Positions 1 through 64,000 of a stretch of 64,000 nucleotides of DNA are shown piece by piece. Position numbers and translations under genes: made by a program. Each line of letters opens with the position of its first letter. The first letter of the stretch is position 1. Source of the DNA: a virus; the IMG/VR virus record IMGVR_UViG_3300031555_002223; one strand, 5' to 3'. The notes below the pieces were generated by a model. It worked only from the letters and a program-made list of their open reading frames with translations, did no database searches and had not been told where the DNA came from.

Positions 1-65
1 CTTGTTTGTTAATGTCGTATAGTGTCATAAATCTCTCTCCTTATGGTTATATAATAACATAACAG

Positions 66-608
66 TTAAATTCTGTCAATCAGTAGTGCCCCTACTGCAT
101 TACCAGCGGCAACCACAAGTAAGAATAAGACTGACTCAAACGAAAGCGCATTGGCCATTAACACATAGCATAAATCAGCTATACAGTGTTCGGCTCCGCA
201 CAGAATAAAACCAGCTACGCAAATAGGAACCATATAGTCTTTACCTCTGCGGTAACAAGCAACAGCACTATAAATGAAGATGCCACATATAACACCCTCA
301 ATGAAAGTAATGGGTAACGGTGCAGACAATTTGGTGGCAACCACTGAACCTGCGGAACCGATCGGAAAGACTAGGCTCCCGCAGGTTCCAATGATATTGC
401 CAATCAGAATAACCAAGTTATCCCTTACATCTTCTTTACTCTTGATGTAGCCTACTGTGCCAGTGAATAACTTAAATTCCATATTTAGAATTAAAAATAG
501 TCCAATGGAGAACAGGAAGGCTCCAACAATTCCATTAAACTGTAAATAGATACAGCTTGCTATTGCTATGGATAAACCGCCGAGAATACTTTTCTCAAAC
601 AGTTTCAT
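66..608 (-). CDS. integral membrane protein, possibly formate/nitrite-transporter-like
   Basis: 180 aa with several hydrophobic helices; motifs KLFTGT and AAGNAVGALL resemble FNT-family signatures; shorter than a typical FNT. Confidence 0.35.
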   Translation of the reverse strand: MKLFEKSILGGLSIAIASCIYLQFNGIVGAFLFSIGLFLILNMEFKLFTGTVGYIKSKEDVRDNLVILIGNIIGTCGSLVFPIGSAGSVVATKLSAPLPITFIEGVICGIFIYSAVACYRRGKDYMVPICVAGFILCGAEHCIADLCYVLMANALSFESVLFLLVVAAGNAVGALLIDRI

Positions 609-1077
609 GAAGGTAAATCACCCTTTGGTTACGACTACCTCTCATGGGAAGCGTAATGTCACGCTCCTCTTCTTTATATGGGCCATCGATAATACAGTCG
701 GCTAGCTCCAAGATTCTTTTCATGTGGTTGTCAGAGACTTTCAATAAGTCTTCGTATTGATAACCCGTCCAGATATAAACCTTGGTATTTGGCAGAGCCT
801 TTTTAACTGATTCGATGACCAAGTGTGTCAAGAACAAATTGTCTTGACACAGTGGTTCTCCACCCATGATACACAGGTCTCTATTGATATTATTGGCTTG
901 TAGGCCTGCAATAATGGACTCAAGGGTTTGTGGAGTAAACTCTTTTCCTCCCTCAAAATCCCATGTCTCTTGGTTGTGACAGCCTTTGCAATGGAAAGGA
1001 CAGCCTTGGGTAAAGAATGACAAGCACACACCTGGTGCTGATGAAAAATCGTTGTAAATGATACCACTATATCTCAT
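595..1077 (-). CDS. nrdG: anaerobic ribonucleotide reductase activating protein (radical SAM)
   Basis: CPFHCKGC CxxxCxxC cluster; GGEPL motif; directly downstream of nrdD. Confidence 0.85.
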   Translation of the reverse strand: MRYSGIIYNDFSSAPGVCLSFFTQGCPFHCKGCHNQETWDFEGGKEFTPQTLESIIAGLQANNINRDLCIMGGEPLCQDNLFLTHLVIESVKKALPNTKVYIWTGYQYEDLLKVSDNHMKRILELADCIIDGPYKEEERDITLPMRGSRNQRVIYLHETV

Positions 1078-1724
1078 GCTTTACTCTCCTCAATTTCTAA
1101 CTCTAGGTCTTCAATATCATCCATATCATCGGTAATAATGTAATAATAAATACATGAGCAATATGGATGATACGGTGGAAGCGGTATGTTTTCATCTGCG
1201 GGATATTCTCCCTCATAGTCAGCACAACCACTCTCACAATCAGCCCCAGAGGTTTCTATTACAAGGATAGTTGCAACTGGAGCAATCTTATTTGAGATTA
1301 CTCCATTGCGAATGATTAGAGTTTCATTCTCAAGCAGTCTATCCAACATGGTAGAAAGAAAGAGACTAATTTCTTTTTTGGAGTGTCCTTCTTCCACCAT
1401 GAATTTTCCGGTTTGGCAATATTGCTTTATTCTTTCTTCAAGAGTTTTGCCGTCACTGCGATAAGTGAGCGATAATACATCTTCGATATCGAATTCTTTT
1501 ACTTTCGAGTAAATTTTCTTCATTTCTTGAGATGTAAAACTATAAGCCTTAGTTAATGAGTCAATAAAGATTTCCAGTATTTTCTCACTACCTTCTTGCC
1601 AATCGAATATACCATCTATACATTTAAGCACAACAGACACAATTTTTTCAAGGTCTTTGTCCTTAGAGGACAAAAGCGATGAGTTCATGGCTTGTATCCT
1701 GGCTTTAAGTTCTGCCCTAGTCAT
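1074..1724 (-). CDS. hypothetical protein, Cys-rich acidic C-terminus
   Basis: 216-aa ORF translationally coupled between nrdD and nrdG. Confidence 0.4.
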   Translation of the reverse strand: MTRAELKARIQAMNSSLLSSKDKDLEKIVSVVLKCIDGIFDWQEGSEKILEIFIDSLTKAYSFTSQEMKKIYSKVKEFDIEDVLSLTYRSDGKTLEERIKQYCQTGKFMVEEGHSKKEISLFLSTMLDRLLENETLIIRNGVISNKIAPVATILVIETSGADCESGCADYEGEYPADENIPLPPYHPYCSCIYYYIITDDMDDIEDLELEIEESKA

Positions 1725-63511: not shown

Positions 63512-63588
63512 TGGTGACCCCTGCGAGGCTCGAACTCGCATTGCCGGCTTGAGAGGCCGGCCTCCTAGACCAGTTAGAGGAAGGGGCC
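63512..63588 (-). tRNA. tRNA-Glu (CUC)
   Basis: loop CUCUCAA; T-arm GCGAG-TTCGAGC-CTCGC. Confidence 0.7.
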
Positions 63589-63611
63589 ATAAGCGGCCGA
63601 AGCCGCAGGTA

Positions 63612-63953
63612 TTACACAGGGTCGATGTCGCGATGATTGCACTTCCGAATGACATAGACCTGAACGGTCTCGCCATTCTTCTTGTACTCAGCTTCCTCCA
63701 GGGTGGAGAAATCGCAGACCCAGACGTTGCTGGAACCGACACGGCGCAGCTCGCCACCGCAGTTGGGACACTTGCGAGGCTTCTCAGCCTTGGGCTTGGG
63801 CTGCTTCATACCGAGGGCGGCCGCAACTGCGGCAAAACTGTTGAAACGACCGTGGATTTCAGAAATATTCTTCATGGCATGTTCCTCCTTAATTCTTCTT
63901 TTCGTTGAACTTCTCGCACGAATGCTTTCGAGGCACATGCTTGCCGTCAGCAC
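63612..63953 (-). CDS. zinc-ribbon protein
   Basis: CPNCGG...C motifs; 113 aa. Confidence 0.35.
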   Translation of the reverse strand: MLTASMCLESIRARSSTKRRIKEEHAMKNISEIHGRFNSFAAVAAALGMKQPKPKAEKPRKCPNCGGELRRVGSSNVWVCDFSTLEEAEYKKNGETVQVYVIRKCNHRDIDPV

Positions 63954-64000
63954 ACTTCTTCGTGCAACGATTGTAAGAACCGCAGTTCTGACAGACCTCG

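Follow-up and report, generated by a model that had tools for sequence, protein, structure and literature searches.

In the 64-kb stretch of viral DNA analysed here (IMG/VR record IMGVR_UViG_3300031555_002223, positions 1 to 64,000; hereafter the window, meaning the whole stretch), the amber codon TAG is a sense codon. UAG is very probably read as glutamine (Gln) by means of a phage-encoded amber suppressor, tRNA(CUA), with UAA and UGA as the sole terminators, which makes the source a phage of the code-15 type. The source is an uncultivated phage of ~146 kb from gut-type metagenomes, distantly related to the SPbeta group of Bacillota phages. Our statements on recoding cover the 64-kb window and pieces of ~20 kb from its relatives.

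Calling genes with TAA and TGA as sole stops gave 73 genes and 18,458 codons, with TAA as terminal stop in 48 genes and TGA in 25. Fourteen of these genes (19%) contain a total of 29 in-frame TAG codons (Table 1), and the same 14 genes have no in-frame TAA or TGA and no frameshifts. A first-pass annotation, made from the sequence alone, had claimed that TAG is a sense codon in this DNA and that TAA and TGA are the stops. This is borne out by the continuity of domains, by full-length homologues, by identical independent assemblies and by conservation across the clade, although the "at least 17" genes that it listed as read through TAG come down to the 14 that we can support. Single Pfam matches (RNase_H, Thy1, AAA_24, Guanylate_kin, Phage_lysozyme2, PIN_4, GIY-YIG and HNH) bridge TAG codons. 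Essential-looking genes are among those with TAG inside catalytic domains, namely ThyX, RNase H, guanylate kinase (Gmk), RecJ, the Sak4-like ATPase, PhoH and the lysin. The RecJ-like open reading frame (ORF), for which the annotation had noted five TAG codons, aligns from end to end with 120 homologues, among them proteins of 582 amino acids (aa), and with proteins of four cultured phages that use the standard code; in comparison with these cultured phage proteins, the invariant motifs of the DHH family lie on both sides of the TAG codons.

The three stop codons differ sharply in this behavior. Peptides of relatives were split at all three stops, which is neutral with respect to the code, and we counted those stops of the window that fall 25 or more columns inside the alignments. 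The coding strand showed 16 TAG, one TAA and one TGA, and the mirror strand, our internal negative control, 19 TAG, 14 TAA and 13 TGA. Comparable runs of in-frame TAA or TGA in the TAG-bearing genes, which the first-pass annotation had said would mean pseudogenes, were thus not found. Across 103 related loci, with 256,350 aligned residues, in-frame codons numbered 463 for TAG, five for TGA and five for TAA; this bias indicates that recoding is clade-wide and of the code-15 type, which is an already known phenomenon. The TAG codons of the window recur in contigs 99.98-100% identical to it that come from eight or more independent samples, and errors of sequencing or assembly are thereby excluded. 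Standard-code gene calls by the Joint Genome Institute (JGI) on identical contigs split or truncate these genes: RecJ is cut into pieces of 118, 118, 92 and 118 aa, and truncated products are called for Gmk (128 aa), AAA_24 (285 aa), RNase H (111 aa) and GIY-YIG (137 aa). The earlier estimate that about 20% of the genes are broken by standard-code callers is therefore accurate (14 of 73). The TAG-bearing frames are single genes, and among the stop codons TAG alone behaves in this way. How much of the sequence long ORFs cover when TAG, TGA or TAA is read as sense did not discriminate among the three codes, since the removal of any stop lengthens ORFs, and this measure was set aside.

The encoded amino acid had been left undetermined in the first-pass annotation, with a hint at Gln, and codon comparisons at the DNA level point to Gln as well. 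The relative L001 is 96.2% identical to and collinear with positions 10426..21540 of the window (11,115 bp), without indels, and all eight TAG sites that are polymorphic between them are exchanges of TAG and CAG; codon 71 of the RecJ-like gene, for example, is CAG in L001. In L002, which shares 73% identity and can be translated under the standard code, the five TAG columns of RecJ hold CAA, CAA, AAG, CAA and AAT. Across the clade, 292 homology-validated TAG sites were compared with relatives at least 85% identical. Their 77 alternative codons were CAA (52), CAG (16), AAA (5), GAG (2), GAA (1) and AAG (1), so that CAA and CAG account for 68 of the 77, and codons for Ser, Leu, Trp and Tyr for none. 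In the opposite direction, 178 unique TAG sites of relatives face a Gln in the window 28 times, against a background of 3.5%. A likelihood based on BLOSUM62 has Gln in first place by no less than 22 natural-log (ln) units, the deficits being 22 for Arg, 31 for Lys and 42 for Ser. On these codon comparisons, TAG is assigned to Gln and not to Ser. A list of in-frame TAG codons of relatives that was built directly from ORFs held spurious frames and real stops (124 exchanges of TAG and TAA), and the validated sites replaced it.

The suppressor, tRNA(CUA), is encoded in the window. It has a U1·U72 mismatch, G73, an encoded CCA and a variable region of 20 nt (a 17-nt insertion with respect to the Rfam model). 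Its anticodon stem has 5 bp, its D loop 8 nt and its D stem 4 bp, and the D arm as a whole hardly differs from that of the window's ordinary tRNA-Gln(UUG). With the anticodon masked, its three best matches are tRNA-Gln(UUG), and 19 of 33 suppressors in the clade have Gln as their closest isotype. The tRNA is 100% identical in the relatives L007, L009, L010 and L011, where its flanks are 90-97% identical. Among 80 related loci we found 43 tRNA(CUA), most of them of the ordinary length of 74-76 nt and without a long arm. G73 is present in all 23 clade suppressors that end in CCA, and their 1:72 pair is mismatched (U·U in 13) or weak; the Gln tRNAs of the clade have A1:U72 or U1:A72 and G73, and its Ser tRNAs G1:C72 in 38 of 38. 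Glutaminyl-tRNA synthetase (GlnRS) has U35, G73 and an opened 1:72 pair among its determinants, and amber suppressors tend to become charged with Gln. We infer that tRNA(CUA) is charged with Gln by a host enzyme, either GlnRS or a nondiscriminating glutamyl-tRNA synthetase (GluRS) followed by the amidotransferase GatCAB. Charging would be helped by G73, by the unpaired 1:72 end and by U35, and possibly also by an extra arm that mimics a Gln anticodon. The host presumably uses the standard code, in which case the TAG-bearing genes would be fully translated only with the phage tRNA present. No gene for an aminoacyl-tRNA synthetase or a release factor was seen in the window. In relatives 96-97% identical to the window, a strongly different tRNA-Gln (L007, 7055..7130) takes the place of the tRNA-Gln(UUG) at the corresponding position, and the suppressor is invariant.

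Several observations weigh against the reading of TAG as Gln. The E. coli identity set for Gln comprises U35, G36, A37, G2:C71, G3:C70 and G10. Measured against this set, which may not be that of the host, tRNA(CUA) has U35, A37, G2:C71 and G10 but departs from it at A36, at C3:G70 and in its extra arm; position 36 is A in every amber suppressor. The relative L008 keeps the TAG in its orthologue of the gene at 53942..54475 without a tRNA(CUA) at the locus; L008 would then have either a suppressor at another locus or a truncated copy of this gene. Codon 427 of RecJ faces Asn in homologues, in a poorly conserved column, and codon 204 of the homing-endonuclease-like gene at 28317..29195 faces a Tyr codon, TAT, in 34 of 45 relatives, probably as a tolerated change of TAT to TAG in a mobile gene. 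Distant homologues show many residues at poorly conserved columns. PDB homologues place Phe, Gly or Ser at the TAG columns of ThyX and Gmk; these structures were too distant to indicate the residue and were used for the register across TAG only. Likewise, Gln occupies only 3 of 20 cells at the TAG columns of cultured RecJ-like proteins, which are too distant to name the residue. Gln counts from protein-database homologues are only partly independent. The database has translated TAG as Gln on some contigs: the entry P0113 has Gln where the DNA of L001 has TAG, and for L007 and L009 it lists a product of 177 aa despite the TAG in the DNA, whereas calls for the same genes on JGI contigs are truncated. 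Because these counts are partly circular, the assignment of Gln rests on the codon comparison at the DNA level. Finally, no TAG occurs in 80% of the genes, every large replication gene among them, which makes the recoding of the window sparse and not pervasive. L008 (ENA ERZ28595967 scaffold_221; 95-98% identical) lacks the segment corresponding to 48738..50359 of the window, with tRNA(CUA), tRNA-Lys, tRNA-Leu(CAA) and the HNH gene.

The Gln-type codons of the window are CAA (274), CAG (369) and TAG (29), with TAG thus contributing 4.3% of 672. TAG codons are clumped: they occur in 14 genes, where 21 would be expected (P = 0.0004). Four homing-endonuclease-like genes (two GIY-YIG, one HNH and one unclassified) account for 15 of the 29, so that mobile genes appear to hold the highest TAG density, and the RecJ-like gene has five more. 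Close relatives lack the HNH gene and the second GIY-YIG gene. The large replication genes and the codon-biased MVP-like, TROVE-like, flotillin-like and YorF genes have none, and the lysin has one. On our analysis, this pattern fits partial recoding on a standard-code host, as in other code-15 phages. A possible extension, which we hold only tentatively, is that UAG is partly reassigned: it would still terminate translation in the uninfected host and early in infection, read-through by the phage tRNA would be late or incomplete, and TAG would serve as a timer or attenuator for a subset of genes and not simply as a synonym of CAG. The sparse, clumped distribution, the TAG in the lysin and the failure to find a gene for an RF1 inhibitor or for RF2 in the window all favor such a role, and a published model for code-15 phages proposes exactly this (10.1101/2021.08.26.457843). 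However, most genes with TAG in the window belong to DNA metabolism or are mobile endonucleases, the structural genes, in which the model predicts the majority of TAG codons, lie outside the window, and the free exchange of TAG and CAG between close relatives suggests that the two codons are nearly synonymous. The idea of a timer refines the reading of UAG as Gln and does not replace it.

The first-pass annotation had described the scaffold of the suppressor as Ser-like. On this view TAG would encode Ser, and the suppressor would be a class II-like tRNA, maybe derived from the adjoining tRNA-Ser(UGA) (50360..50452). The tRNA does have a length of 91 nt, a 20-nt variable region and G73, it directly abuts tRNA-Ser(UGA), and the extra arms of both start with GGCC. 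Nonetheless, we consider the assignment to Ser extremely improbable, and indeed close to refuted. Not one of the 77 codon exchanges involves TCN or AGY, those with L001 are uniformly between TAG and CAG, and the likelihood for Ser is 37-42 ln units below that for Gln. The U1·U72 end contrasts with the G1:C72 of all clade Ser tRNAs, and the D stem is of the 4-bp class I type, like that of the tRNA-Gln of the window, not of the 3-bp type of class II Ser tRNAs. The long arm itself is a 3-bp stem with a 7-nt loop of Gln-anticodon-like form, a motif found in none of 49 Ser tRNAs, and most suppressors of the clade, at 74-76 nt, have no long arm at all. With the nearest tRNAs being Gln tRNAs as well, the Ser-like description does not hold.

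Under the reading of UAG as Gln, the extra arm of the suppressor deserves attention of its own. It has the sequence GGC-CUUUGAA-GCC, that is, a 3-bp stem and a 7-nt loop, followed by a 3' tail of 6 nt, and the loop CUUUGAA has the form of a tRNA-Gln anticodon loop, with a U33-like position, UUG and an A37-like position. In loci that were not chosen through the motif, YU(C/U)UGAR was present in the extra arm of all eight distinct long tRNA(CUA) (the window, L072, L074, L076, L086, L105, L112 and L126) and in none of 131 other long tRNAs (49 Ser, 46 Leu, 18 Tyr, 11 Cys and others). A pattern scan of IMG/VR gave at least 120 matches (loci L141-L260), among which at least 87 are tRNA(CUA) recognized by ARAGORN, with at least 68 distinct sequences. 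The same scan in 185,579 bacterial and archaeal genomes gave three such tRNAs among the 120 matches listed, all on short contigs of metagenome-assembled genomes, two of them labelled Bacillota and Bacilli. The stem was not part of the scan pattern. All 44 distinct arms can form both of its inner pairs, which swap among CG, GC, UA and UG, and the covariation of the stem was 0.49, compared with 0.18 in shuffles (0 of 500 reached 0.49) and at most 0.13 when the pairing was slid. Since the required motif biases the IMG/VR set, only the contrast of 8/8 with 0/131 and the covariation of the stem are unbiased. An exact search of IMG/VR for the anticodon arm returned only unrelated tRNAs.

It is conceivable, if far from certain, that the arm is a natural pseudo-anticodon, shown either to the Gln-charging machinery of the host (GlnRS, or GluRS with GatCAB) or to a modification enzyme that binds the anticodon loop, with UAG being read by the real anticodon arm. 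If so, the arm would account for the Gln identity of a CUA tRNA with no synthetase supplied by the phage, and these tRNAs would form a widespread and apparently undescribed class with two "anticodon arms", represented by the at least 68 distinct IMG/VR sequences and almost absent from bacterial genomes. In the literature, of which our coverage was incomplete and is no proof of novelty, we found no description of a natural pseudo-anticodon arm in phage suppressors. We regard the suppressor tRNA as the most useful lead of the analysis, with the arm as the part most worth following up. We also weighed a different fold, with the Gln-like hairpin as the genuine anticodon arm and the CUA hairpin as the inserted element; it was judged less likely for the tRNA of the window, in which the Gln-like hairpin has a stem of only 3 bp. 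The extra hairpin has a 5-bp stem in some relatives.

Two further readings have next to no probability. In the first, TAG is still a stop, and the in-frame TAG codons are nonsense mutations of decaying genes or errors of assembly or sequencing. Homing endonucleases, which often decay, do hold 15 of the 29 TAG codons, and one TAG faces a conserved Tyr codon, TAT, but decay or error would not leave TAG inside the catalytic domains of essential-looking genes without a single in-frame TAA or TGA or a frameshift, the 463:5:5 bias of the relatives, TAG codons that are identical in independent assemblies and conserved at the 96% level of relatedness, and a dedicated, perfectly conserved tRNA(CUA). 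In the second, TAG encodes pyrrolysine (Pyl), as in the ARAGORN label "tRNA-Pyl", for which the CUA anticodon is the sole basis. The anticodon stem of a tRNA-Pyl has 6 bp, its D loop is tiny and its variable loop is just 3 nt long, in contrast to the suppressor described above; no Pfam domains for Pyl synthesis or pyrrolysyl-tRNA synthetase occur among the scanned proteins of the window, and the TAG columns behave as Gln.

The individual TAG-bearing genes are listed in Table 1. Several features that the first-pass annotation had picked out are found as described: RNase HI is one frame within a single RNase_H match, the RHR-x7-S motif of ThyX lies downstream of its TAG, Gmk runs on for 63 codons beyond TAG, the Walker A motif of the Sak4-like ATPase sits just upstream of TAG, and the HNH core bridges codon 125. 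Terminal stops are likewise TAA or TGA as it had stated, with the MVP-like and TROVE-like genes ending in TAA and the plus-strand endonuclease in TGA. For the GIY-YIG gene at 19734..20660, the six TAG codons are real and all lie within the first 153 of 308 codons, whereas the reported length of 171 codons corresponds only to the N-terminal part. All six are kept in L001 and L004, and relatives align across the region. The TAG of the AAA_24 gene is kept in L001, and that of RNase H is identical in L003 and L005. PDB chains of ThyX align in register across TAG from residue 5-7 on, and solved structures (PDB) of Gmk do so as well. Relatives align across all four sites of the endonuclease-like gene at 28317..29195, where codon 252 faces CAA in 29 of 44; in lysin orthologues of relatives, many TAG codons exchange with CAA or CAG; and 23 relatives of the PIN-PhoH protein align across its TAG. 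Of the two proteins of unknown function, that at 31881..32345 is covered by alignments to relatives in which the codon at the TAG site is ATT, and that at 53942..54475 has CAA at the TAG column in all 12 of its more distant relatives, with the alignment continuing, and keeps TAG in L007-L011. The small Cys-rich protein is the weakest of the 14: a relative at least 85% identical has AAG at the TAG site, and the JGI call ends at 79 aa.

Table 1. Genes of the window with in-frame TAG codons, and the suppressor and Gln tRNAs
Feature	Coordinates	Strand	Length	TAG codons (positions)	Domains and remarks
Gmk (guanylate kinase)	4002..4580	-	192 aa	129 (4194..4196)	Pfam Guanylate_kin 3-176, bridges TAG
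RecJ-like DHH exonuclease	10900..12651	-	583 aa	18, 71, 202, 334, 427 (12598, 12439, 12046, 11650, 11371)	Pfam DHH, DHHA1, RecJ_OB
Small Cys-rich protein	12657..12926	-	89 aa	80 (12687..12689)	
AAA_24 (Sak4-like) ATPase	16384..17349	-	321 aa	36 (17242..17244)	Pfam AAA_24 20-189, bridges TAG, which directly follows Walker A
ThyX	18820..19446	-	208 aa	25 (19372..19374)	Pfam Thy1 21-200
GIY-YIG homing-endonuclease-like	19734..20660	-	308 aa	39, 44, 105, 129, 147, 153	Pfam GIY-YIG 217-296
RNase H	27268..27768	-	166 aa	28 (27685..27687)	Pfam RNase_H 2-153
Homing-endonuclease-like	28317..29195	+	292 aa	135, 191, 204, 252	Ends in TGA
Lysin	29190..30509	-	439 aa	96 (30222..30224)	Phage_lysozyme2 + Amidase_2; Phage_lysozyme2 3-159 bridges TAG
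PIN-PhoH protein	30568..31806	-	412 aa	101 (31504..31506)	Pfam PIN_4 9-117, bridges TAG
Protein of unknown function	31881..32345	-	154 aa	63 (32157..32159)	
HNH endonuclease	49229..49864	-	211 aa	55, 58, 125	Pfam HNH 108-149, bridges 125
Protein of unknown function	53942..54475	-	177 aa	150 (54026..54028)	
GIY-YIG endonuclease	62334..63110	-	258 aa	28, 58	Pfam GIY-YIG 5-90, bridges both
tRNA(CUA), amber suppressor	50269..50359	-	91 nt		ARAGORN; Rfam tRNA model 53 bits
Ordinary tRNA-Gln(UUG)	56789..56862	-			ARAGORN; A1:U72, G73

Recoding of TAG to Gln with phage suppressor tRNAs is established in several clades of gut phages (10.1101/2021.08.26.457843; PMC9523058), namely the crAss-like, Lak and "gemstone" clades of Borges et al. 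(10.1101/2021.08.26.457843), and metaproteomics has confirmed it in crAss-like phages (PMC9523058). The window resembles these code-15 phages in that TAG aligns with Gln, a phage tRNA(CUA) is present, only some genes are recoded, standard callers fragment genes, the source is an animal gut and the lysin has a TAG. It differs from them in its low use of TAG (19% of genes and 4% of Gln codons), in the concentration of TAG in DNA metabolism and homing endonucleases instead of the structural module, and in having neither an RF2 nor an aminoacyl-tRNA synthetase gene within its 64 kb. phAss-1 and the proposed Phassvirus are human-gut phages of 136 kb in which 41 ORFs contain TAG and three genes encode suppressor tRNAs (PMC10607447). 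The phage studied here is of a similar genome size class and likewise has suppressor tRNAs and hallmark genes interrupted by TAG, but the window has no megablast match in GenBank phages and its DNA polymerase best matches SPbeta-like phages, at 38%. With the SPbeta-like Bacillus phages (Spbetavirus) it shares a replication module (a YorL-type PolIII alpha, YorF, YorH, DnaB and the RecJ-like protein) and a similar genome size. In contrast to SPbeta, which uses the standard code, the clade has an array of at least 20 tRNA genes, a transfer-messenger RNA (tmRNA), ArfA, MVP-like and TROVE-like genes and recoded TAG. Amino acid identities of 35-38% (polymerase and RecJ) and the lack of any nucleotide-level match place the phage outside Spbetavirus, despite the common module. 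The kind of recoding is thus already known; what the window adds, as judged from its sequence, is an SPbeta-related, tRNA-rich lineage from animal guts.

For the suppressor itself, the closest parallels come from E. coli and from engineered tRNAs. In supE-type or Gln-mischarged amber suppressors of E. coli, the CUA anticodon, U35, G73 and a weak or unpaired 1:72 end suit GlnRS (PMC9976931). The tRNA of the window shares these traits, but it is phage-encoded, has a true U·U at 1:72 and C3:G70, and carries an added hairpin, as do those of some relatives. Mukai 2020 engineered a pseudo-anticodon arm into the variable arm, which enhances aminoacylation by a synthetase that recognizes the arm (PMC7590224). 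Those tRNAs are also amber suppressors whose variable-arm hairpin copies the cognate anticodon loop; they are synthetic, built on an allo-tRNA chassis, have His identity and work with a synthetase fused to an extra anticodon-binding domain, whereas the phage arm is natural, of Gln type and widespread, and its function is putative. The way in which hosts charge a CUA tRNA with Gln is a question for code-15 phages in general, for which the unpaired 1:72 end with G73 and the extra arm are testable hypotheses; both may serve as natural parts for genetic-code engineering. The concentration of TAG in DNA-metabolism genes and mobile endonucleases bears on the "late-gene timer" model of recoding. For annotation, the standard code breaks about one-fifth of the genes in this phage and its large clade, among them ThyX, RNase H, RecJ, Gmk, the lysin and PhoH, and table 15 is appropriate.

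The window has a G+C content of 44.5%, carries nearly all its genes on the minus strand and represents the replication, nucleotide metabolism and RNA repair region of a large phage. Among those encoded are NrdD/NrdG, PolIII alpha, helicases, DnaB, an ATP-dependent ligase and gyrase A and B, and also RNA ligase, NAD synthase and MVP-like, TROVE-like and flotillin-like genes. These are followed by a tmRNA and an array of 20 tRNA genes (ARAGORN). Near-identical contigs (99.98-100%) occur in several JGI and ENA metagenomes, relatives reach up to ~146 kb, and the TROVE-like gene has at least 186 relatives in IMG/VR. A megablast of 12 kb against 50,697 GenBank phage records gave no match; together with the best polymerase match of only 38%, this indicates that the phage has no close relative among these records. 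The nearest cultured phages are SPbeta-like (YorL-type polymerase, 38% aa identity; RecJ-like protein, 35%). The window holds no terminase or capsid gene, and a placement in a named clade was not reached.

Several other observations concern single regions. The plus strand has stop-free ORFs of up to 1479 codons at 44276..48715, 32504..34084 and 17300..18418. The plus-strand ORFs lie opposite the MVP-like, 99-aa, TROVE-like, flotillin-like and YorF genes, which contain no TTA, CTA or TCA codons (~18, 11 and 11 expected for the three largest) and have a G+C content at third codon positions of 0.6-0.7, compared with 0.42 elsewhere. The lack of these three codons keeps the mirror frame open, and the plus-strand ORFs were rejected as genes, being a by-product of extreme codon bias. 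Several independent assemblies stop at most ~70 nt downstream of the flotillin-like gene (32522..34045; window 32346..32521; L012, L013, L014 and L017), and these ends near 32.4 kb suggest a variable or repeated segment that breaks assemblies. On the minus strand, the window also encodes a set for ribosome rescue, consisting of the tmRNA (60197..60535; tag DNSYFENHLAA), an ArfA homologue (61029..61184; Pfam score 26.6 bits, cut-off 25.5) and a PTH2 peptidyl-tRNA hydrolase (26876..27268). ArfA brings RF2 to stalled ribosomes, and it is possible that this set is linked to life with a reassigned stop codon. Finally, the minus-strand tRNA-Cys(GCA) at 48648..48734 is 87 nt long and has a long, well-paired extra arm, GUGCCCCGAAAGGGCG, unusual for tRNA-Cys, and related loci hold 11 distinct long tRNA-Cys.

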